A stretch of 64,000 bases of DNA from Candidatus Hodarchaeota archaeon (GCA_029856365.1 JAHQWW010000004.1:1-64000); one strand, 5' to 3'. Counted from the stretch's first letter, positions 41,478-53,857 are shown. A program made the numbers and translations. Notes: a model not told the origin generated them from the sequence alone.

Positions 41478-43682
41478 TTAAACTAGCTTTGGCTTCAGAT
41501 GATTTTCAATTTTATCCTTCTTTTTCTGTAATTTCTCTTTTCTTGCTTTTAACCGATTAATTATCTCCGTATGCTTAGTTTCGGAAATCTCATTATTCAA
41601 AAATTTTTCATCAGTGAAATTAATGGATTCTTCAATACGAGTTAAGGCTTCTTCTATTTCTTGAAGTTGTGGATAACCTATTGGTATACCCTTGCTATTA
41701 AGATCTGATGGAAAGTGTACAGTAACTTTCTTTTCTTTTCTAATATATTTGTGTTTATGTTTACGTTTTGAATCATGACTTTCTATTCTCTTAATGCTCT
41801 TTAGGCCTTTTATAGCCTTTAGACCTTTCTCTCTCATAGGAGCATCACTCAATAATTCATCTTCCCCTACAATGAATCCCATCTTCTCTCCTTTCGAATC
41901 AGTCAATAATAATTGAGGATCTTCTTTAAAGAGAGCTTCTACTCGTTTAGTAAATAACTGATCGAAATTCTGTTTGTCCTGAATGATTTTTGCTTTCATT
42001 TCTTCTAAATTAATTGGATCCCCCTCCTGAATATCTATTCCAAAAACTCGGACTTTTTCTCCAAAAGGTGTCTCAATAACGGAAACAAAAGGAGTCTGTA
42101 CGAAAGAATAGTCGGTTGTTTCTAGGACTGTGACAAAACCTCCAAAAACTTGGAAATATTGGCCAACTCCTTTAACCTCGATAACTTTGACAAGACCTCC
42201 TAAAACATTGACCAATTCTAACATTTTAGATTCAAAAACATAGATTCCTGGTAACCTTACTAAAGAATAGTCTTCTGTTTCTGTTATCGAATACTTAGAT
42301 GGTGTAGTATCCAAAACTGATGAAAAAATCCCTTGTGGTCCGCGCCATGTTTTCAGATCATTCAATGCTTTTTTAGTTTTTTCAAAAATTTCTGTTGCAG
42401 CATCAATACCCGCGTTTTTTAACTCTGCTTCGGTCAGTTCACTCATTTCTTTGGGATTCAATTGGAGTTTTATTTTATCCCATTCTTCTGGCTTTAACCA
42501 AAGTGTGGTTGTTCCTTCAATTGCTTTTTTTGACGAAGTTTCTTGATCTTCTGTCTTTGTTTCCATTTCAGACTTACCCATAAGCACTAACGCAGTTCCT
42601 TTTTCGGTAACCGTTGGAACAGCGATAGCTCCCTTACTAGCCATCACCGATGTGTTTCCCTTACTCACAAGCTTCATCTGATCAGTTGGAATTGTATATA
42701 CTCGTTCTGTTTTCTTGAACTCAGTTTTTTGTATAGTTTGCGCAAAATTCTGAACTCGATTACCAAGCTGACTAGAAGGATCAATAACTTGAACTTGACC
42801 AGAAACAGCATTCATGAGAGATCCAAACCGACTATCCCGTTTTTTTGGTGTAAAAATCAAGATAAATCCTATTAATAAGCTCAGGAATGCAATAAATTGA
42901 AACTGTTCAACATAAAATGAATTAACCCACTGTAATAAAAGTATGATTAACAGAAAGAAACCCCCAGCTAGTAAAGCATCACGAAATCTTTCCGTTGATG
43001 ATTTTAATGCTTGGTACTGATTGAATAGGTCAGTTGTACTCAAAGTTAATTGTTTGGGAGCTACTGGAAACAGATTACCGATTAAAAACATAAAGAATGT
43101 AATCAAAAGCAAAAAATCGAAATCGATTGGGAGTATTGGAATAGGATGGTAAAGATTAATCCCCTGACAAATGTAAAAAAATAGGCTTGCTAACCAACAA
43201 CCTTGAAGAATCCTTTGAATATAAAATAAATAACCCATTTTAAGAATTTTAAAGGAAAAGCTGTTCAGTAAAATAGTAAAAGGAATGAGAATACACACGA
43301 GAGCTCGCTCGAGCTCTCCATAAGATATTATTATAGCTGAATCCCATATATCTGGGATCATACTATTTGGGGTAGAAATTAAGATGAGAAGATAGAAGAT
43401 AAAGATCTTAACAGCACGATTCATTGGAGAAGCTGCTGATTTATCCTCTCCTATGAGATATATATACAATGGGGTGAATAAAAAAAGAGCTATTAGACCA
43501 GTGAATATTGTGGCACGAAATAGTCCAGTTTGTGGGAACAAAAACGCTGATATCCACCAAAAAACCAGTAACAATAGGAATACTAAATCAAGAAATGTCC
43601 TCGGTTTGAAAAATTGTTCTGTTTGGTCTAGTGCAAAACCTTCTAATGACCTGTATTTTGGCAATTGAAAATGTTCTGTCAA
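41478..43682 (-). CDS. Polytopic membrane protein with large soluble beta-rich domain and C-terminal coiled coil
   Basis: About 8 hydrophobic segments in the first ~280 aa; beta-hairpin repeats; basic/coiled-coil tail. Confidence 0.8.
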   Translation of the reverse strand: MTEHFQLPKYRSLEGFALDQTEQFFKPRTFLDLVFLLLLVFWWISAFLFPQTGLFRATIFTGLIALFLFTPLYIYLIGEDKSAASPMNRAVKIFIFYLLILISTPNSMIPDIWDSAIIISYGELERALVCILIPFTILLNSFSFKILKMGYLFYIQRILQGCWLASLFFYICQGINLYHPIPILPIDFDFLLLITFFMFLIGNLFPVAPKQLTLSTTDLFNQYQALKSSTERFRDALLAGGFFLLIILLLQWVNSFYVEQFQFIAFLSLLIGFILIFTPKKRDSRFGSLMNAVSGQVQVIDPSSQLGNRVQNFAQTIQKTEFKKTERVYTIPTDQMKLVSKGNTSVMASKGAIAVPTVTEKGTALVLMGKSEMETKTEDQETSSKKAIEGTTTLWLKPEEWDKIKLQLNPKEMSELTEAELKNAGIDAATEIFEKTKKALNDLKTWRGPQGIFSSVLDTTPSKYSITETEDYSLVRLPGIYVFESKMLELVNVLGGLVKVIEVKGVGQYFQVFGGFVTVLETTDYSFVQTPFVSVIETPFGEKVRVFGIDIQEGDPINLEEMKAKIIQDKQNFDQLFTKRVEALFKEDPQLLLTDSKGEKMGFIVGEDELLSDAPMREKGLKAIKGLKSIKRIESHDSKRKHKHKYIRKEKKVTVHFPSDLNSKGIPIGYPQLQEIEEALTRIEESINFTDEKFLNNEISETKHTEIINRLKARKEKLQKKKDKIENHLKPKLV

Positions 43683-43878: not shown

Positions 43879-46800
43879 TTATTTAATAAGACGTCCTCCA
43901 CAAAATGTACACCCCTCGTTTGTAATTTCCAACGGATTAACTAAAGCTCCACATTCTGAACATACCATAAGCTCTTCTCTCGGTGTATCTAGTTCTAATT
44001 CATCATTTCCATTCGCAAAAATTTCATTTGTTTCCAACTCATGAATCTCTTCTGAAGAAATTAGTGGTACTTTTTCTAGTACTCCTTGAGTTGTTGACTT
44101 TGATACTGATTTAGAGGGTGTATGAGACACTTTGGTTTTAGCATCATTCTTAAAGCTAGCTTTTTTCTTATCACTTGTTTTATTAACCAAAATAACAGGT
44201 TTTGGTTCATCTGTTTGCTTTTCATTCTGAAAAAGACTAACTAAGCCCTGAGATCTTAATTTTTTTTGCTTAGAGGATTTGATACTAATAGTATGCTTTT
44301 TAGTTTTCGTTTTAAGTCTTTTAGTCCTTCGTTTTTTCTTAACACTCTTTTTTTGTTCTTCCAAGAAGTGATATTGTACTTCCTGAGGCTGCGCTGTTTC
44401 TATTTCATTTAAGTCTAGTATCCTTTGTTGTAGTGGCGTTAGTTGCTGAGCTTCCCTTGGATATCGAATCATCCGATCGTAAATTCGTCCAGGCCCAAAA
44501 ACATCTTCAATATATTGATTAACATCTATTAATTTCTGCAAATCATCTTTTGTACTGAGTTCACCTAGCATAAAACTAAGAGTAGCTATAGCGTGTTTCA
44601 CCAAGACTCTTTTTATCGTTTTAAAGTCAAAATCAAAAAGTTGTCGTGGTATAACATGGTTCCCTTTGATATTCAACATCTGAATCCGTGTGCCAGGATC
44701 TACAGAAAATCCTAGATCTTTTAGAATATATGCAGCAGAGACTTGGGGTAATTTTGATTTATATGCTCTCAATGGTTTGTTGATCGCTTTTGGTTTGACA
44801 AAGTAACTGGGATCCATCTGGCCCTCGGTCATCTCAGTTCGAATCAGATTTCCCTCTCTATCGGCATTTTCATATAGCTGATCAAGTGTAATAGGATTGT
44901 CTGGGTTGTACTGATCCAAATAAGTGTTAATAATTCTCTCTTGAAAGTATTTCTGTAGTTGTGAAAAATCCGCTCGTTTTGATTCTAAACCCGTTAGTTC
45001 CTCTTCTATCCACACACGATTTTTCTGATTAAAACTATACACAATATATTTCTTCTTTCCCATTACAAATTGAAAGTCATAAGGCCCATCCTGTTCAAAT
45101 TGAATAAGGCTTTTACTTGATCGTGTAATTGTTTCTCCGTTATTTATCCAATAATTATCATTCTTTGAAACTGTTGCCACTTTTTCATTGAGAATTTTAT
45201 CAATAAGACTGACATTGAAGACTTTAGATCCATTTTCTTCATGAGGATTCTCAATTGTGACAGAAAAGTCCAAGGGGAATAATTTGGGAACCCACAACCA
45301 TATACCGTCAGTATTATGGCAAACAATGCCACCATTTGCAGATACAAAATTATTATTATCTTCTACAGATAGATCATAAACATAGTCAGTAGTCTTTTTT
45401 ATTTTGGTTATTCCTTTCTTCTTTAATCCAATAATTTCATTTAACTTTACATTCTCATAATGTAGTTTACTTCCCTGTTTCCAATTTTCTATATCCATAA
45501 AATTGACCATATACACAATATTTCCAGATGAACTTGAGGTTGTTTCTTGAATACTTACAATATAGCCTAATTCCTTACCTAATACGTACAAATCATCTCG
45601 CAATCCATCACTTGAAGTCCAGAATACCATTCGTTTTCCTTGTTTACTACCATCACCTTTGAAATATCCCGTTAAAAAGGCTTTTTTCACATTTGAACTC
45701 GAATTTAGAATCAACTTGGGAATTCTCTTTTCAAACGCATCTTTTCCACAACCCAATGCCTCAAATAGATGATAAAAGAAGAGGTTATCCATCGCTAATC
45801 TGTATGTTTCAGTTTTAGAATCAGAAAGAGCTGGACTTATTTTAAAATATGATGATAAATTATCTGCAACCATCTCTATTAATTTCTTAATTCGGTTTAG
45901 ATTATCCATATTTTGTTGAGAGATGCCTACACTTATCTTATCGTTATAAATTCCTGATGTACCCTCAGCTACATACCAACCACAAAGTTCAGCGATATTT
46001 TCATCTAGATGAATTTGTATTGGATATTTGTAGCTTCTCAATGTACCAATAAGTGCTTCTTCTGCATATTCATCTTTGAACTCATTCAATGGAATCCTAT
46101 AATAGTTTTTTCTTCTAGTTTTGTCATTTTTATCATATCTAAGACTAGATATTGGATATTTATTCCATTTCTCATTGGTATCTTCAGGTATGAACACATA
46201 TAAATCAATTTCAGTAATCTTGTGTTGGTTGAAATTAATCATTAATTTATTCTTTTTAACAGCAGGAAATCTAGCAATATGAGCAATAAATTCTTCTTCA
46301 AGTTTTTTTACTTCCATCGGTTCAAATAAGTTTTTATTTATATGAAAAATACTATGTGAATCAGTTGTAACAATGCTTCCAAAAGGAGTTTTAATCTTAT
46401 AAACATCTTTCGATGAAATTTGTCTAATACATTTGATAATCGGTTTCCATTCAACTTTACCTATTTTTGAAACTGAAAGGACGGCCCAATCTTCAGGTAC
46501 AATGATATAATCTACTAATCGTGAATTATCTGTTGTTTCAACTCCTTTAATAGACAAACAATAATCATAAAACTCACCAATTGACAAAACTTGAATTAAA
46601 CCATCAGGATCTTGAAAAATTAACCTTTCATTATAATCAAGGCTATCCAATTCTGTGACTAAGCCTATTTGCTCTAGTTGATTCGCAGCCCAAAATATCA
46701 AATTGGCTGATAATTTTGTTGTAATCCCAGCACACGGCATACTTGCATTCCTAACACCTCCTTTCATACCAAGGAGCCCATAAATACTGTTTAAAGGAAC

Positions 46801-49566
46801 TTTCATACCAATCTGGGTACTTTCGTGAAATTTTTGCTGGCGTAGTAATTTAGGAGGAACGGGTCCGTTTTGGTATTTCTGGGAAATAATTTGCGAAAGC
46901 CGTTTGGCTTCGATTTTATGGCGAACTCGGGTGTTAAAGAAGTCATCCATAATTCTAGCAACGAAGTTATAGGCTTTTTGGCAGACACGTGAGTAAACCG
47001 ACAATAATATTGTTATTTTCTTAGTTTTAACATCTAGACTCAAAAATGAATTTGTTGGGAGTTGAATATTCTCTGGTACATCCTCAAAAATATCAAAATG
47101 ATTCTGGTCTAGCTTAGTTGTGAGCTGTGTTGCTTCAATTGAGTTACGAAGCCATTGCTGAAGGGCAACATATGGATCTTTTGAGATATCAGATCCTAGA
47201 TATGTACGACTAACTGGTACTTTTTCTAATTCTGATCCGTTTTTAAGAATATAAGCTTCCGTCTCCTTTCCATCAAATGTGAATATTTCACGAGAGCGAA
47301 TGATACCGTTTTGAGTAGGTTCGTACCTCTTACATTTCGCTTCATTTTCTGCTTTACAAACCGAAGATGCACATTTATCAGGCCCCGTATCTTTGAAACG
47401 ACATGGCCGATTTGCTGAAAGTTTGATTACCCAATCACCCTCATAGAAACAACTATCATCAGGTTCATACAATTCGCACATTCTACACTTAGTTGGAGAG
47501 ATTATTCCCGATGGTTGGAGCTTATATTGACGAATTTGGGAAGGATACATAGAAGTAACGTCAACGTGGACACCCCTGAGTTGAGTTGTTCCATCCAAAG
47601 AAGATAATTTATCTATCTGCGTTAAAACATCTGTAGTAACTCTTTTAACATTAACAGGTTTATATGCAGATATTTTCTCCAAGATAATCCGGATAGAATC
47701 TAGTTGTCGTTTAAGTTCGTGACGTGGAATTCCATTTTTTAAGAGTTCTACCTCTACCTGTTTCAAGAACTGTACTGGATCTTCAGAGAATTCCACTTTC
47801 ACTTCCCCCAATTCAACTAAAAGATGTTTTTCAAATTCTTCTTTAATTACTTTCTTCGCAATTATATTACTTTCTTTTGCAATTACTTGTCTAATAATTT
47901 TTTTGAGGTTTTTTAACGCGTTCTTATTAACTTGATAATCGTAATAGAGATCACTTCGCCATATACCTGGCCTTTTAGCCTCAACCAATCCCCCTGTGTA
48001 AGCTAACGATTCGATGACAATACTAGGTGAAAAAGAAGTAATTCCATTCTTTCCAATCCTCTTTCTCCCTATTATCTGATGTTTATGATCTTCTGCATCG
48101 ATTAAAAGGTCATCTAACGATCCTGCTCGTCGTGTTAAAAGCTCTGACGCTGGAACTGGAAATATTTGACCCATAGAAATGAAAAAGTCAAGGACTATTT
48201 CCCGAACATACTTCCATGTGATGTAACCATCACAACCAGCATAAGCAACAGCTGAAACTGGATCTTTTTTAATGTTAAACAGAGCTTCTCTTCCAATAGG
48301 TATTATTTTCAGCTTTTTCTCCACACTCGGTTTCAAGCCAAGATCTTTTTTAGGAAGATAGCTATATTTCTCATTAAATAGATAAGCATCTAAATGAATA
48401 ACCCCGGCCCCTGACACATGATCAATGTTTGCTGAAGAATAATACCTGTGTAAATCTTTTCGACTCAGGTTCCTTGTCAGACGAAAGTTAATTTCAAAGC
48501 CAGTTTCTTTTTCAAAAGAGATTTTGTACTTTTCCGAACGAATGGCAAGAAAAGGAATATCAAAACGGCCCCCAAAGAAATCTGTAATGACATCTGGGTT
48601 ATAATCATTAATATACTTATAGAATAATTGTATTAGTTCCTTCTCAGTCTTTACAATGATAACTTCTATCGAGAACTTCTCGATTACATCTGGGAATTCC
48701 TGTGGTGCATCTGAATATTTCCAATCGACCCACGGTTTAGGATGGGTATCATCATCCTTTTGACGAAGGAGCATATCAAAATTTTTGACATTTTTTGTCT
48801 CGATAACTCTTGAATTAATAATTAATTTGTTTTCACTGCCAGTAAACAGTGAAATCATTGAAATCTCGTCTTTATTAGGATTAGGATCACGTGTTTGTTC
48901 AAAATCTGTTTCAATATCAAATGCTAGAATTTTTAATTGAGGAGGTGTTTTATCAGGTAATGGAGACAGATTAAGAATTTCTCCTCGGCTTATTTCAGCC
49001 AGGTACCAAGCTCCAACTCGAACATCATGATCTATTGCGCAACGATGATGAAACAGTACATCTGCTTCCCTCCATTCCTGTACTCCACTTATTTCTTCAC
49101 TTTTTGCCCGTAGATTTGGTACAGATCCTGGACGATCTGCAGTTACTTTAATAAATGGTTTTCTAAATAAAAATGTAAGATCGGCTGCGTCATAATAATC
49201 ACCCTTCTCTACTTTAATTACCTGTTTGTCTCCAATTTCTTTAATCTGCCCCATTATTCTATTGATTTCATTCTGTGATAAACTATCCTCAAGTAATAGG
49301 AAATAATATGGTTCATGTCTTAAAAATGCTTTACGCTTCTTATGGTCTTCATCTAAGAAATAGATTTGGATTCCATTTATTAATTTCGCTTTGCTATACT
49401 CTGTATCTTCGTATTGAGATACAGAATCATATGTATCCTCCCATTGACTATGAGTTTCATAATCTAATATGAAAATAGGTATCTTTTCTCGCTCATTATA
49501 ACGAAATGGTTGAAACCAAGATCGGTAACCTGGATGAAAAGTCTTTGTCCGTCTTGGTTTTGACAT
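43879..49566 (-). CDS. polB: Family B DNA polymerase, Pol epsilon-like, intein-containing
   Basis: ExoI AFDIET, ExoII FDIPF, YTGG, DVTSMYPS, KVPLNSIYG, ELD|TDG split by the intein; Cys motif; C-terminal CSECG…CTFCG. Confidence 0.95.
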   Translation of the reverse strand: MSKPRRTKTFHPGYRSWFQPFRYNEREKIPIFILDYETHSQWEDTYDSVSQYEDTEYSKAKLINGIQIYFLDEDHKKRKAFLRHEPYYFLLLEDSLSQNEINRIMGQIKEIGDKQVIKVEKGDYYDAADLTFLFRKPFIKVTADRPGSVPNLRAKSEEISGVQEWREADVLFHHRCAIDHDVRVGAWYLAEISRGEILNLSPLPDKTPPQLKILAFDIETDFEQTRDPNPNKDEISMISLFTGSENKLIINSRVIETKNVKNFDMLLRQKDDDTHPKPWVDWKYSDAPQEFPDVIEKFSIEVIIVKTEKELIQLFYKYINDYNPDVITDFFGGRFDIPFLAIRSEKYKISFEKETGFEINFRLTRNLSRKDLHRYYSSANIDHVSGAGVIHLDAYLFNEKYSYLPKKDLGLKPSVEKKLKIIPIGREALFNIKKDPVSAVAYAGCDGYITWKYVREIVLDFFISMGQIFPVPASELLTRRAGSLDDLLIDAEDHKHQIIGRKRIGKNGITSFSPSIVIESLAYTGGLVEAKRPGIWRSDLYYDYQVNKNALKNLKKIIRQVIAKESNIIAKKVIKEEFEKHLLVELGEVKVEFSEDPVQFLKQVEVELLKNGIPRHELKRQLDSIRIILEKISAYKPVNVKRVTTDVLTQIDKLSSLDGTTQLRGVHVDVTSMYPSQIRQYKLQPSGIISPTKCRMCELYEPDDSCFYEGDWVIKLSANRPCRFKDTGPDKCASSVCKAENEAKCKRYEPTQNGIIRSREIFTFDGKETEAYILKNGSELEKVPVSRTYLGSDISKDPYVALQQWLRNSIEATQLTTKLDQNHFDIFEDVPENIQLPTNSFLSLDVKTKKITILLSVYSRVCQKAYNFVARIMDDFFNTRVRHKIEAKRLSQIISQKYQNGPVPPKLLRQQKFHESTQIGMKVPLNSIYGLLGMKGGVRNASMPCAGITTKLSANLIFWAANQLEQIGLVTELDSLDYNERLIFQDPDGLIQVLSIGEFYDYCLSIKGVETTDNSRLVDYIIVPEDWAVLSVSKIGKVEWKPIIKCIRQISSKDVYKIKTPFGSIVTTDSHSIFHINKNLFEPMEVKKLEEEFIAHIARFPAVKKNKLMINFNQHKITEIDLYVFIPEDTNEKWNKYPISSLRYDKNDKTRRKNYYRIPLNEFKDEYAEEALIGTLRSYKYPIQIHLDENIAELCGWYVAEGTSGIYNDKISVGISQQNMDNLNRIKKLIEMVADNLSSYFKISPALSDSKTETYRLAMDNLFFYHLFEALGCGKDAFEKRIPKLILNSSSNVKKAFLTGYFKGDGSKQGKRMVFWTSSDGLRDDLYVLGKELGYIVSIQETTSSSSGNIVYMVNFMDIENWKQGSKLHYENVKLNEIIGLKKKGITKIKKTTDYVYDLSVEDNNNFVSANGGIVCHNTDGIWLWVPKLFPLDFSVTIENPHEENGSKVFNVSLIDKILNEKVATVSKNDNYWINNGETITRSSKSLIQFEQDGPYDFQFVMGKKKYIVYSFNQKNRVWIEEELTGLESKRADFSQLQKYFQERIINTYLDQYNPDNPITLDQLYENADREGNLIRTEMTEGQMDPSYFVKPKAINKPLRAYKSKLPQVSAAYILKDLGFSVDPGTRIQMLNIKGNHVIPRQLFDFDFKTIKRVLVKHAIATLSFMLGELSTKDDLQKLIDVNQYIEDVFGPGRIYDRMIRYPREAQQLTPLQQRILDLNEIETAQPQEVQYHFLEEQKKSVKKKRRTKRLKTKTKKHTISIKSSKQKKLRSQGLVSLFQNEKQTDEPKPVILVNKTSDKKKASFKNDAKTKVSHTPSKSVSKSTTQGVLEKVPLISSEEIHELETNEIFANGNDELELDTPREELMVCSECGALVNPLEITNEGCTFCGGRLIK
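45313..46644 (-). mobile_element. Intein (444 aa) with LAGLIDADG homing endonuclease in polymerase motif C
   Basis: Starts SLDYNE, block B TTDSHSIF, LCGWYVAEG and FLTGYFKGDG, ends YVYDLSVEDNNNFVSANGGIVCHN with +1 Thr. Confidence 0.95.
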
Positions 49567-50307: not shown

Positions 50308-50574
50308 ATGTCCTTCTTTACTCGACAATTAGTAAAATTTAGGACAGAGATTATTGGAGGGGTAATTGCTCTTGTTATGATAGTTACAGGTCTCATTATC
50401 CCTTTCTTCATCCCCGATCAACTACCTTCAGCTCCGCAAGGTTTTGAAGATGCAACTTGGATTAAAACTCTTATCTCTCTCCTTTTCATTGGAATGGGTA
50501 TTTTATGCTTTGTTTGGCTTGTAATAATTCATAGATTCATTTTACGTAGGAGTAAGAAGGATTACATGTACTGA
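50308..50574 (+). CDS. Small 2-TM membrane protein
   Basis: Two hydrophobic helices; AGGAG upstream. Confidence 0.75.
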   Translation: MSFFTRQLVKFRTEIIGGVIALVMIVTGLIIPFFIPDQLPSAPQGFEDATWIKTLISLLFIGMGILCFVWLVIIHRFILRRSKKDYMY

Positions 50575-50645: not shown

Positions 50646-51092
50646 ATGAGAAGATTTTTTGATTCTCTTTTAATAAAATTTAGAGGTAAAACTATGGCTA
50701 AAACGAATGAACCTGTTGTTGTTTCTTCTAAAGTCTGGGCAATTCTTCTTGAAATTGAAGCATTAAGAATAAAAGAACATAAGTTAATTCGTAACCTTTG
50801 GTTCGATTTGAAGGAACACCATCATCGTAAAATCCATCAGATGGTGTTTGAGCAAGCTTTGCAGTCAAATTCTGCGTTTCCTTCTGTCTCACGAAAAGAA
50901 CTCGATGATTGGGTTTCGAAAAACATTACCACAGTATTTATAACATTAATTGAGCAAGGGGACATTATTGTTCAAGAGGAAGAGCCAAGTAAACCTCGAA
51001 AGTGGTTGTTTCAGGGAGTGGAGAAAATTAAAAAGAAAATTGATGAGACTCGAGAAAAAAATGCTGCTGATCAGAAGAAGACCTCAAAATGA
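50646..51092 (+). CDS. Hypothetical protein
   Basis: 148 aa. The second Met (MAKTNE), preceded by GAGGT, may be the true start. Confidence 0.7.
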   Translation: MRRFFDSLLIKFRGKTMAKTNEPVVVSSKVWAILLEIEALRIKEHKLIRNLWFDLKEHHHRKIHQMVFEQALQSNSAFPSVSRKELDDWVSKNITTVFITLIEQGDIIVQEEEPSKPRKWLFQGVEKIKKKIDETREKNAADQKKTSK

Positions 51093-51148: not shown

Positions 51149-53857
51149 ATGGAGGAAAATAAATTTCAATATTCATTTACTCAATTATTGAAAAATCCTC
51201 CTCCCCCAAAAAAACCAACAAAAATCCTCTTAGAAATCTTCTTCCAACTAAATTCATTGAAACTCAAACACTTGACATGCAGCAATATTTTGCTTCAATT
51301 CATTAGCCTCCTTTTTTTCAGTCCAAAAAGTATTCCTTTTTCTAATGACGAACGATTCACTAATTGGAAAGAAGTATACGACTATTATGGTAACCCTGAA
51401 CGTATTTTTCTTTCAATAGAAGATAAATTAATTCCTACTTCCATAAAAAGCTTATTTCTTAACAAAAATCATAATCAAGACGATAAATTGGTGGCAGATT
51501 GGTTAAATACAATTGATTGGGGTACTACTGCGGATTATCTTAGCAAGAATTATCGTTGGTTAAATGACTATTATGATTTAGAAACTAATGAAACAGATTT
51601 AATCACCTTAGAAATCTTTGATACTATTGCAGCTAGCTTGAAGAGAGACGAGTCCTCTTCGAAAAATTTGTGGGGGGAAGTTTATACTCCTTATCGATTT
51701 GCAGCCTATATAGCAAAAGAAAGCTTGATTCATTGGCTTAATAGCTGTTTCCAAGGAAACAAACATATCAATTTATTAAATCAAAATGTGTCCGAACTAG
51801 ATGAAGAGTCCAAATCTCTTCTTCTAAATAAGCTCGAGTCTATTAAAATATTAGATCCAGCAGCAGGTACAGGTGTTTTTCTACTTGCTGCTGCAAAATT
51901 GTTATTAAAAAAATTGAAGGAATTACAACCTAATGGATCCACCCAAAACTTGAAAACTCAGATATTGGAGAGAAATCTTTTTGGTGTAGATATAGATATC
52001 TTTGCTGTAACTATTTCTTTAATGAAATTCTGGTTGTGGGCTTGGGATCATAAGGATTTACATTCTTTTGTCCAAATTTCATTTAAATATAATTTTTATG
52101 AGGGTAATGCCCTTTTGGGGTTCCAAAACATGCCCACAGACTATAGAAAAAACAATCTGGCAAAGCAGCAGTTAGAAAAGCAAAAAAGCTTGCTTGACTA
52201 CCAATATGATCAGAAAAATCTCAATCAATTTGCCATTTATAAAGTATCAAATCACCAAAGCTCTATTCAAGGACTAAATCAGCTTTTTAAGTTCGCTCAA
52301 AGTCTTATTAAACATCATTCATTTAAATATTTCATTTTAGAGGGTGATCGTGTTCTCTGGAATAGTGAAAAAGATAGCTTAAACAAGAATGTATTGAAGA
52401 AAACTCGATTTTCCGCTTCAAATTCATGTTCTTCAAATTACAATCTCTATGCTGTTTTTTCACCTTCATTAAATGCGAAAGAAGAAGAAACAATAACATC
52501 TACACTTTTAGAATGTAAAAAATATTCCATCCCCAAAAAGTTTCATTGGATTTATTTTGGACCATATACTCCTAAGTTCGATTTGATTATCGGCAATCCT
52601 CCATTTGTAGCATTAACTGATATGACGATGATTTCACGAAAAATGCTACGAAGAGAATATCCAAATATTTATACAGGTAATAATGATCTTTCTTACTTCT
52701 TTATTACTCGTGCTCTATCGGCCTTAAGAACTGATAATGGAATTTTATCATTTATTCTCCCAAAATATCTATTACACAGTGTATATGCTAGAAAAATCAG
52801 GAATTTGATAGTCCGATCAGCAAAAATTCTTGAAATTCATGATTTAGCAGAATTTGCCCTGTTTAAAAATACGAGTATAAAAAATATTATTTTACATTTA
52901 AAGAGAGGCAGAATCCGCTCTAATGATATATTTATCTATTATAAATATCGAAAAAAGAAATCTCAAGCCTATAGGGAAGTCTGTAACATTCAGCAGTCCA
53001 ATCTTAAATCAGAAAAGTGGATACTACTTGATCCTCCTAAGTTAAATCTTCTCAATCGCATTAGAAAGAATTCTAATATGAGACTGAAGGACGTAGCTTA
53101 TATTAGTAAAGGAATCGAAACTGGTTGCGATCGTATTTTTGCACCTAAAGAGCCATTCTATTTTTCTAGGATATTAAAGGTCAATCAAATCCATATTAAA
53201 CCTTGGATCAAAGGAAAAGACATTAAACGATTTTCAATATCTAGCACAGGAAGAGAGGTTCTTTTTGCTCCCTGTTATCGTAAACATGAAATTATAGCAA
53301 ATAAGAAAATCTTAAACTATCTTAAACAAAACAAAAAATTATTATTAAATAGAAGCCGCGTTTTTAAATTTTACCTTTGGCGATCTGGGGATGAAAGAAA
53401 GACAATGAAGTGGGATACCCGTAAAATTGTTTCTCCCTATAAGGCCACTCAAAATACCTTTGCAATCGATTTAAAAGGCAGTCTTTCCTCAAAAGATGTT
53501 GTTTGGATAATTCCTAATGAAAAATTCTCTAAAAAAGATTTTATTCTGTTTTTAGTTGCTATTTTGAATTCTGAAGTGTTAACCTTCTTTGCCCTGAATT
53601 CTATCAAAGATCTTGGAGGTCTCTATGAATATTATCCAAAACAAATCCAGGATTTTCCCTTGGTTATTCCAAAATTCAATACACCAGAGTATAAATCCAT
53701 TTGTGATCTTACTTCCAAGATATTGAAGAGTCAAAATGACATAAAAAAAATGAAATCAGAACGGAGATTAAATGAAATTATCTTTAAATTATATTGTCTT
53801 TCTCAAGAAGAAATAGATCTTTTAGAGGAGTGCAATCATCAGTGTTTCCAGAAATAA
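51149..53857 (+). CDS. Amino (N6-adenine) DNA methyltransferase, Eco57I/TaqI-like with C-terminal TRD
   Basis: GEVYTP, ILDPAAGTGVF, GVDID, IIGNPPF; TaqI_C-like AILNS region. Confidence 0.9.
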   Translation: MEENKFQYSFTQLLKNPPPPKKPTKILLEIFFQLNSLKLKHLTCSNILLQFISLLFFSPKSIPFSNDERFTNWKEVYDYYGNPERIFLSIEDKLIPTSIKSLFLNKNHNQDDKLVADWLNTIDWGTTADYLSKNYRWLNDYYDLETNETDLITLEIFDTIAASLKRDESSSKNLWGEVYTPYRFAAYIAKESLIHWLNSCFQGNKHINLLNQNVSELDEESKSLLLNKLESIKILDPAAGTGVFLLAAAKLLLKKLKELQPNGSTQNLKTQILERNLFGVDIDIFAVTISLMKFWLWAWDHKDLHSFVQISFKYNFYEGNALLGFQNMPTDYRKNNLAKQQLEKQKSLLDYQYDQKNLNQFAIYKVSNHQSSIQGLNQLFKFAQSLIKHHSFKYFILEGDRVLWNSEKDSLNKNVLKKTRFSASNSCSSNYNLYAVFSPSLNAKEEETITSTLLECKKYSIPKKFHWIYFGPYTPKFDLIIGNPPFVALTDMTMISRKMLRREYPNIYTGNNDLSYFFITRALSALRTDNGILSFILPKYLLHSVYARKIRNLIVRSAKILEIHDLAEFALFKNTSIKNIILHLKRGRIRSNDIFIYYKYRKKKSQAYREVCNIQQSNLKSEKWILLDPPKLNLLNRIRKNSNMRLKDVAYISKGIETGCDRIFAPKEPFYFSRILKVNQIHIKPWIKGKDIKRFSISSTGREVLFAPCYRKHEIIANKKILNYLKQNKKLLLNRSRVFKFYLWRSGDERKTMKWDTRKIVSPYKATQNTFAIDLKGSLSSKDVVWIIPNEKFSKKDFILFLVAILNSEVLTFFALNSIKDLGGLYEYYPKQIQDFPLVIPKFNTPEYKSICDLTSKILKSQNDIKKMKSERRLNEIIFKLYCLSQEEIDLLEECNHQCFQK

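Follow-up and report, generated by a model that had tools for sequence, protein, structure and literature searches.

A group B10 DNA polymerase related to the catalytic half of Pol epsilon and interrupted by a motif C intein in Candidatus Hodarchaeota archaeon

The polymerase gene and its likeness to Pol epsilon

We analyzed a gene for a family-B DNA polymerase (PolB) in a 64,000-nt stretch of DNA from Candidatus Hodarchaeota archaeon (GCA_029856365.1, JAHQWW010000004.1:1-64000), hereafter called the window. The gene lies on the minus strand and very probably encodes the precursor of a catalytically competent, proofreading polymerase of the B10/Pol epsilon-like clade, that is, a stand-alone counterpart of the catalytic half of Pol epsilon. 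Its parts are as follows (positions counted from the first nucleotide of the window; aa, amino acids).

43879..49566, minus strand: whole precursor open reading frame (ORF) of the Pol epsilon-like family-B DNA polymerase (group B10) with its intein, 1895 aa, ATG start
46645..49566, minus strand: N-extein, aa 1-974, with the N-terminal domain, 3'-5' exonuclease, motif A, CysX, the insert at the P-domain position, fingers with motif B and the first half of motif C (ELD)
48340..49071, minus strand: 3'-5' exonuclease domain, aa 166-409 (Pfam PF03104, E = 3.6e-26)
46981..47568, minus strand: motif A (H667, D669, Y674) and CysX (C694, C697, C706 ... C862) around a 155-aa insert at the Pol2 P-domain position
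47332..47403, minus strand: B10-specific extra cysteine cluster (C722, C732, C737, C745) within the insert, a candidate second metal site
46777..46803, minus strand: motif B, K922-x3-N926-S-x-Y929-G930, with invariant columns
45313..46644, minus strand: intein, aa 975-1418 (444 aa), inside motif C, placed by alignment and motifs
43879..45312, minus strand: C-extein, aa 1419-1895 and stop, with the TDG of motif C, the KKKY motif, the remainder of the palm, the thumb, the linker and the zinc ribbon
43981..44469, minus strand: Lys-rich low-complexity linker, about aa 1700-1862, ending in a conserved ELETNEIFxNG
43900..43962, minus strand: C-terminal zinc ribbon, C1869-x2-C1872-x13-C1886-x2-C1889

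On the precursor, Pfam recognizes the PolB exonuclease domain, the intein splicing domain with a LAGLIDADG module and, weakly, a PolB polymerase domain after the intein. An earlier sequence-only reading of this locus had described an epsilon-like PolB consisting of the catalytic half plus one zinc finger. The motifs on which it drew (WREADVLFHHRCAID, KYSYLPKKDLGLK, ELLTRRAGSL, GIWRSD, KLQPS and VCQK) are all found in the translation, as is the tail that it described, a low-complexity linker followed by a single CxxC...CxxC, and alignment with intein-less orthologues gave exactly the intein limits (aa 975-1418) and the spliced length (1451 aa) that it had proposed.

Judged by its sequence, the resemblance of the protein to Pol epsilon is far beyond chance. 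A phmmer search against the chains of the PDB returned the catalytic subunit of Pol epsilon from yeast and human with E = 7e-42, whereas archaeal PolB reached just 1e-10, and for the region from motif A to motif C (aa 563-974) the sole PDB matches were Pol epsilon, with DVTSMYPS...LQPS...C-x2-C-x8-C and ...VCQK paired with the human CysX cysteines. With a profile made from B10 proteins only, POLE reached 1e-106 (361 bits), as against 8e-35 for Thermococcales PolB and 9e-14 for Pol delta. Furthermore, a HMMER search run exhaustively over 1.84 billion cluster representatives returned the archaeal B10 family first and then only proteins of ~2000 aa, and the named ones sampled among these were eukaryotic POLE. 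For the fold, we modeled residues 40-1239 of an intein-less orthologue, 85% identical to the window protein, by AlphaFold2 with a 54-sequence alignment (predicted local distance difference test (pLDDT) score 86.7, predicted template-modeling (pTM) score 0.83). When this model was compared with the PDB by Foldseek, catalytic cores of Pol epsilon filled ranks 1-36 (E down to 6e-60, TM 0.66-0.76), followed by Thermococcales PolBs that covered under half of the model (TMq 0.45-0.49). Together with the tree described below, these comparisons of sequence, profile and predicted fold show that the core is homologous to the active N-terminal module of Pol epsilon in eukaryotes, and they bear out the proposal of an epsilon-like PolB rather than an ordinary archaeal PolB3.

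The catalytic residues are invariant in B10 and POLE, namely D217/E219 of Exo I, D336 of Exo II and Y442/D446 of Exo III in the exonuclease, and D669 and Y674 of motif A, K922, N926, Y929 and G930 of motif B, D974 and D1420 of motif C and the KKKY motif in the polymerase. Given this invariance, excision of the intein should leave both the polymerase and the exonuclease intact, and a proofreading polymerase is predicted as the spliced product. The four CysX cysteines, C694, C697, C706 and C862, are likewise aligned and invariant in 54 of 54 B10 and POLE sequences. In Pol epsilon, CysX holds a [4Fe-4S] cluster required for DNA binding and polymerase activity (PMC9581978), and by homology we infer that B10 binds a [4Fe-4S] cluster at the same place.

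The region between the third and the fourth CysX cysteine is 149-186 residues long in B10 (155 in the window protein) and contains at least four extra cysteines in 33 of 33 B10 proteins; in POLE it is typically about 83 residues long with 0-1 Cys (n = 21). Three of the four cysteines of the extra cluster are invariant within B10. This insert at the P-domain position is beta-rich in the model and about twice as long as in POLE. The extra cluster, where the model has low confidence (low pLDDT), may be a further metal site within an enlarged, P-domain-like insert. Another B10-specific segment of ~70 aa precedes motif A (aa ~563-630, 47677-47880, minus strand). Long helices are predicted for it, and yeast Pol2 has nothing equivalent: query residue 562 aligns with Pol2 residue 592 and query residue 631 with Pol2 residue 600.

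A cysteine pattern at the CysX position was also seen outside B10 and POLE. The PolB1-type gene of the same genome (L001) and PolBs from DPANN, Helarchaeota and Thermofilaceae (L029, L035, L036, L038, L042, L043, L046) carry C-x-H-x2-C-x12-14-C directly after motif A, and this pattern often ends in W(V/F)C(Q/T/A)K, comparable to the VCQK of B10 and POLE. CysX may be derived from this older knuckle by insertion of the P-domain between the third and the fourth ligand.

The protein ends about 200 aa after the thumb. In keeping with the description as a catalytic module with one zinc finger only, it has no Pfam match to DUF1744 (PolEpsilonC, PF08490) and a single Cys4 motif; no match to DUF1744 was obtained in any of the 24 genomes of the order either, in a search run without a positive control. 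The CysA/CysB tail that binds the B-subunit was not found in the protein, which instead carries one zinc ribbon. The ribbon occurs in nearly all complete B10 proteins, and it is generic: Pfam gives only sub-threshold zinc-ribbon matches in the C-terminal tail, with the TFIIB zinc ribbon at E = 3e-4. Ahead of the ribbon, the window's subclade conserves the acidic-hydrophobic motif ELETNEIFxNG (aa ~1843-1853, 43981-44100, minus strand), and a regular-expression search of the linker found no canonical box of the PCNA-interacting protein (PIP) type in this subclade. Meanwhile, the linkers of divergent LC_3-type subclades (P0042, P0046, P0054-P0056) contain canonical PIP-like boxes, SKNISEFF and KGDLTKFF, and two proteins end in ...ITDLRAFF. 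Since the linker motifs differ by subclade, PCNA contact may differ between subclades as well.

Phylogeny, distribution and descent

The maximum-likelihood (ML) tree was computed from 51 rows and 829 columns under LG+C20+F+G4 with posterior mean site frequencies (PMSF). The rows comprise 17 B10 proteins, with the window protein in spliced form, 14 N-terminal halves of POLE from diverse eukaryotes, the PolB1-type and PolB3-type proteins of the window's own genome, 16 distant archaeal and bacterial PolBs from species genomes, E. coli Pol II and a halovirus PolB. A further PolB fragment of the same genome (L003), which lies at a contig edge and is mostly intein, had a branch length of 5.9 and was left out of the final tree. 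In the tree, B10 and POLE are each monophyletic (100/100) and form a joint clan (ultrafast bootstrap (UFBoot) 100, SH-aLRT 99; branch length 1.13), next to which two Deinococcus PolBs with the motif C IESDTDG branch (93/82). The stems of B10 and POLE are long, 1.86 and 1.07 substitutions per site, respectively. A phylogeny had been set beforehand as the check on the sequence-only reading, and in the present one, drawn without Pol alpha, delta and zeta, B10 is sister to POLE-N and falls in neither PolB3 nor the viral PolBs, which leaves the reading unrefuted.

These data bear on one alternative, an ordinary archaeal PolB3 or PolB1 whose Pol2-like motifs arose by convergence or chance, and leave it exceedingly improbable. 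The thumb on its own matches Thermococcales PolB slightly better than POLE, but the profile and fold rankings favour POLE, and forcing B10 together with canonical PolB3 costs 131 log-likelihood (lnL) units and is rejected by the approximately unbiased (AU) test (p-AU = 0.0007). Moreover, the CysX cysteines are shared only with POLE, and the motif C Glu (E-x-DTDG), common to B10 and POLE, occurs elsewhere only in Deinococcus G3-like PolBs. The genome also contains separate PolB1-type (1s5j, E = 2e-167) and PolB3-type genes, neither of which matches POLE among its top 60 PDB matches. An ordinary PolB3 or PolB1 identity is thus refuted by the B10 profile, the Foldseek ranking, the ML tree and the AU test taken together.

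About 58 B10 homologues of 1430-1600 aa were found in metagenome-assembled genomes (MAGs) of Hodarchaeales/Heimdallarchaeota. The orthologue of LC_3 (P0055) is 38% identical to the window protein (E = 3e-184), and that of B3_Heim (L017) is 58% identical over aa 13-974. In a scan of 399 genomes of the phylum, B10 was present in 20 of the 21 other genomes of the window's own family, in both genomes of the second family of the order and in none of the 375 genomes elsewhere. The gene is also present on two closed chromosomes. The proposal that the gene is a strong taxonomic marker is upheld, as it is found in 22 of the order's 23 other genomes and in 0 of the phylum's 375 remaining ones.

The enzyme is not alone in its genome, which encodes a complete DP2 (1107 aa, with all three Pfam domains), a DP1 with the phosphoesterase domain and the PolB1-type and PolB3-type enzymes mentioned above; DP2 was found in 22 of the 24 genomes of the order. 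With PolD and the PolB1-type and PolB3-type enzymes present as well, the epsilon-like enzyme is one polymerase among several rather than the sole replicase. In the second family (G078, G079), the matches to the DP2 N-terminal domain are very weak (E = 2e-7 and 3e-9, versus 1e-35 to 1e-46 in the window's family; ORFs of 1029-1194 aa), so that DP2 appears strongly divergent in this lineage, which fits a remark of 2020 on LC3-like genomes without active DP2. The contig-edge fragment left out of the tree (L003, contig C200:1-3679) has a LAGLIDADG intein ending in ...SHN/C (the slash marks the junction) at motif B and a degenerate motif C (IVDS for DTD), and may represent a PolB2-like gene that became inactive.

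The neighbourhood of the polymerase is conserved within the order, with synteny stable in 17-18 of 22 loci, and shows no evident functional link to the polymerase. The neighbouring genes are the following.

41478-43682, minus strand: multi-pass membrane protein, 734 aa, downstream of the polymerase (17 of 22 loci of the order)
50308-50574, plus strand: 88-aa membrane protein, divergent (18 of 22 loci)
50646-51092, plus strand: 148-aa protein (14 of 22 loci)
51149-53857, plus strand: Eco57I/TaqI-type methyltransferase (13 of 22 loci)

We considered the downstream 734-aa gene as a separate PolEpsilonC-like module and ruled this out, as its product is a multi-pass membrane protein without PolB similarity. 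In the upstream genes of 88 and 148 aa, neither a histone fold nor any other signature of a polymerase accessory was seen.

The sequence-only reading took the protein to represent the state before the fusion that gave Pol epsilon its second module. This fits the sister position and matches a published hypothesis, whereas the direction of descent implied by it is not legible from two reciprocally monophyletic clades and stays a matter of interpretation. Several histories would agree with the tree: vertical descent from an ancestor resembling Hodarchaeales, an ancient transfer from archaeon to eukaryote, a transfer from eukaryote to archaeon, or parallel acquisition from a mobile element. Synteny, a G+C content of the polymerase gene that matches the host's and the lack of close viral relatives in phage records and IMG/VR favour a long-resident archaeal gene.

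Two other scenarios of origin have to be weighed on the same evidence. First, the gene could be a secondary derivative: horizontal transfer could have brought an early eukaryotic POLE gene's N-terminal half into a Hodarchaeales ancestor, which supplied a zinc-ribbon tail of its own, and the protein would then be a truncation made after the fusion. The confinement of B10 to one Asgard order would suit such a transfer, and sister clades of B10 and POLE give no direction from the tree alone. However, B10 is not nested in eukaryotic POLE; both clades are supported at 100/100 and have long stems, which points to a split before the radiation of the sampled eukaryotes. The archaeal synteny and the host-like G+C also speak against a eukaryotic source, as does the lack of any PolEpsilonC trace in the order in the uncontrolled search described above, and we consider the scenario improbable. 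Second, B10 and PolEpsilonN may each have been acquired independently from an unsampled mobile element or virus, neither being the ancestor of the other. Kazlauskas et al. regard the narrow groups B4-B10 as probably derived from extinct lineages or mobile elements (PMC7544198), and the homing inteins show that the gene is exposed to mobile DNA. We nevertheless give this scenario only a small chance: no close relative was found in 50,697 phage records (best, haloviruses with 24% identity over the exonuclease domain) or in IMG/VR (best, 29% over 175 aa), and within the order the chromosomal setting is stable and the gene near-universal (22 of 23).

The intein in motif C

Alignment with the intein-less orthologues shows that removal of the intein makes IGLVTELD/TDGIW contiguous, and motif C then reads TELDTDG. 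The intein has Ser1 (S975), block B TDSH (1068-1071), the C-terminal HN (1417-1418) and a +1 Thr (T1419), as well as two LAGLIDADG motifs with their acidic residues, GWYVAEG at 1196 and GYFKGDG at 1300. It thus has the features of a class 1 intein with a LAGLIDADG homing endonuclease, and it matches PF14890, PF14528 and TIGR01443. The intein of PI-PkoII (PDB 2cw7) was matched at E = 8e-12 by phmmer against the PDB, and the top family-level match is the intein of RNA polymerase subunit A'' (NCBIfam PRK14898, E = 9e-29). With these motifs intact, both splicing and homing of the intein are plausible. Its insertion site in motif C is the classical PolB 'pol-c' position.

Among the 23 B10-bearing genomes, pol-c inteins occur in three (the window genome, L006 and L016), and two more genomes (L014, L020) have pol-b inteins. 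In the latter two Hodarchaeota MAGs, the B10 ORFs are 2021 and 2020 aa long and contain an insertion of ~535 aa at query residue ~929, within motif B (NSIY/G), which is the classical pol-b site; with insertions at pol-b and pol-c, two of the three canonical PolB sites are thus occupied by inteins in the epsilon-like family. The window intein is 56-60% identical to the other B10 pol-c inteins, whether the host exteins are 86% or 59% identical, so that it has either evolved much faster than its host gene or been exchanged among lineages.

Proposed mode of action and comparison with known systems

Following from these parts, the enzyme would work as follows. The LAGLIDADG intein, with its intact splicing motifs, would excise itself and join ELD to TDG, restoring the motif C TELDTDG and yielding the 1451-aa enzyme. 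By homology to Pol epsilon, CysX would bind a [4Fe-4S] cluster, and the enlarged P-domain-like insert would help to hold the DNA for processive synthesis. A flexible basic linker and one generic zinc ribbon would stand in place of the inactive second module and the CysA/CysB tail of Pol2, and the enzyme would act beside PolD and the PolB1-type and PolB3-type enzymes. According to the published hypothesis, fusion of such a gene with a second PolB module would have come later, in the lineage leading to eukaryotes.

Several points weigh against this account of the gene. The part after the intein (the thumb) is only weakly similar to its relatives when taken alone, with Thermococcales PolB at 6e-6 slightly ahead of POLE at 5e-4. 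For Pol alpha, delta and zeta, which the tree does not contain, exclusion comes from the PDB profile scores and published trees. An unrooted pair of sister clades does not tell whether descent ran from archaeon to eukaryote. The enzyme shares its genome with PolD and two or three other PolBs, which makes any assignment of its cellular role tentative. Lastly, we infer the activity, splicing, Fe-S binding and processivity of the enzyme from motifs and homology.

Taking the cysteine patterns further, we put forward one tentative idea, which we hold with somewhat less than even confidence. B10 would combine the CysX [4Fe-4S] cluster with a second, archaeal-specific Cys4 centre in a P-domain of double size; an Fe-S-dependent, intrinsically processive polymerase would then predate eukaryotes and would have worked alongside PolD in the Hodarchaeales ancestor, its CysX having come from the C-x-H-x2-C...C knuckle of PolB1-type and DPANN PolBs.

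Eukaryotes use Pol epsilon as their leading-strand replicase, and where it came from belongs to the question of eukaryogenesis. A stand-alone archaeal counterpart of its catalytic half, confined to the order that is often placed closest to eukaryotes, is important, although it has been reported before. The window adds a well-preserved, intein-bearing member, and the comparative details could guide the biochemistry of B10 enzymes.

The family, its single zinc motif and the idea of a precursor of Pol epsilon are already published (reports of 2017, 2020, 2023 and 2025). B10, also named the 'epsilon DNA polymerase' of Heimdallarchaeota LC_3/B3, was described by Kazlauskas et al. in 2020 as a group in Heimdallarchaea LC3/B3 that is sister to PolEpsilonN and shares its motif C Glu, with a C-terminal domain (CTD) that has one metal-binding motif, clusters with neither eukaryotic nor DP2 CTDs and is similar to RpoP-type zinc ribbons; these authors proposed that PolEpsilonN came from a B10-bearing archaeon, and placed the P-domain and CysX in Pol epsilon orthologues "but not in other PolBs" (PMC7544198). 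A 2025 study in Nat Ecol Evol interpreted a Hodarchaeales 'PolB1' with a Pol-epsilon-1 N-terminal domain (NTD) as a Pol epsilon precursor from before LECA (eukaryotes' last common ancestor), later fused with a PolB-DP2CTD gene, and found no interaction of the Hodarchaeales PolB CTD with DP1 by yeast two-hybrid (PMC12680538). CysX in B10 is mentioned neither in these two papers (PMC7544198, PMC12680538) nor in the results of a full-text literature search for CysX with archaea. Our additions to this literature are small: CysX is invariant in B10, B10 has an extra Cys4 cluster of its own, DP2 co-occurs with it almost universally, and inteins sit at both pol-b and pol-c.

Compared with known systems, the window protein is closest to group B10, with which it shares the architecture of an active exonuclease and polymerase core, the motif C Glu, the linker and one C-terminal Cys4 motif; the sisterhood to PolEpsilonN and the restriction to Hodarchaeales also hold for it, within one clade at 100/100. 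It differs from other B10 proteins by the 444-aa intein in motif C and by belonging to a subclade without the PIP-like box of the LC_3 subclade. Whereas the 2020 account of B10 was drawn from two MAGs and set amid an inactive DP1 or a lost DP2 (PMC7544198), the window genome encodes DP2. The likeness to POLE runs along the N-terminal domain, exonuclease, palm, fingers and thumb, for which POLE is the best match by sequence, profile and fold, and it includes motif A DV(x)(S/A)MYP...LQP, motif C ELDTDG, the four CysX cysteines and the insert at the P-domain position. However, the identity is just 21-26%, and the window protein lacks the second PolB module and the CysA/CysB tail; a basic linker and a generic zinc ribbon form its end, and it has the extra helical segment of ~70 aa and a longer, Cys-rich insert. 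Because the inactive module and the CysA/CysB tail are lacking, the protein belongs to the Hodarchaeales-restricted PolB group B10, a sister family of POLE, and is not POLE proper. Its intein resembles the pol-c inteins of Thermococcales PolB such as PI-PkoII, which likewise lie between the first Asp and the Thr-Asp of motif C and have Ser1, a terminal HN, a +1 Thr and a LAGLIDADG endonuclease, but those inteins sit in PolB3, whereas the host of the window intein is an epsilon-like PolB.

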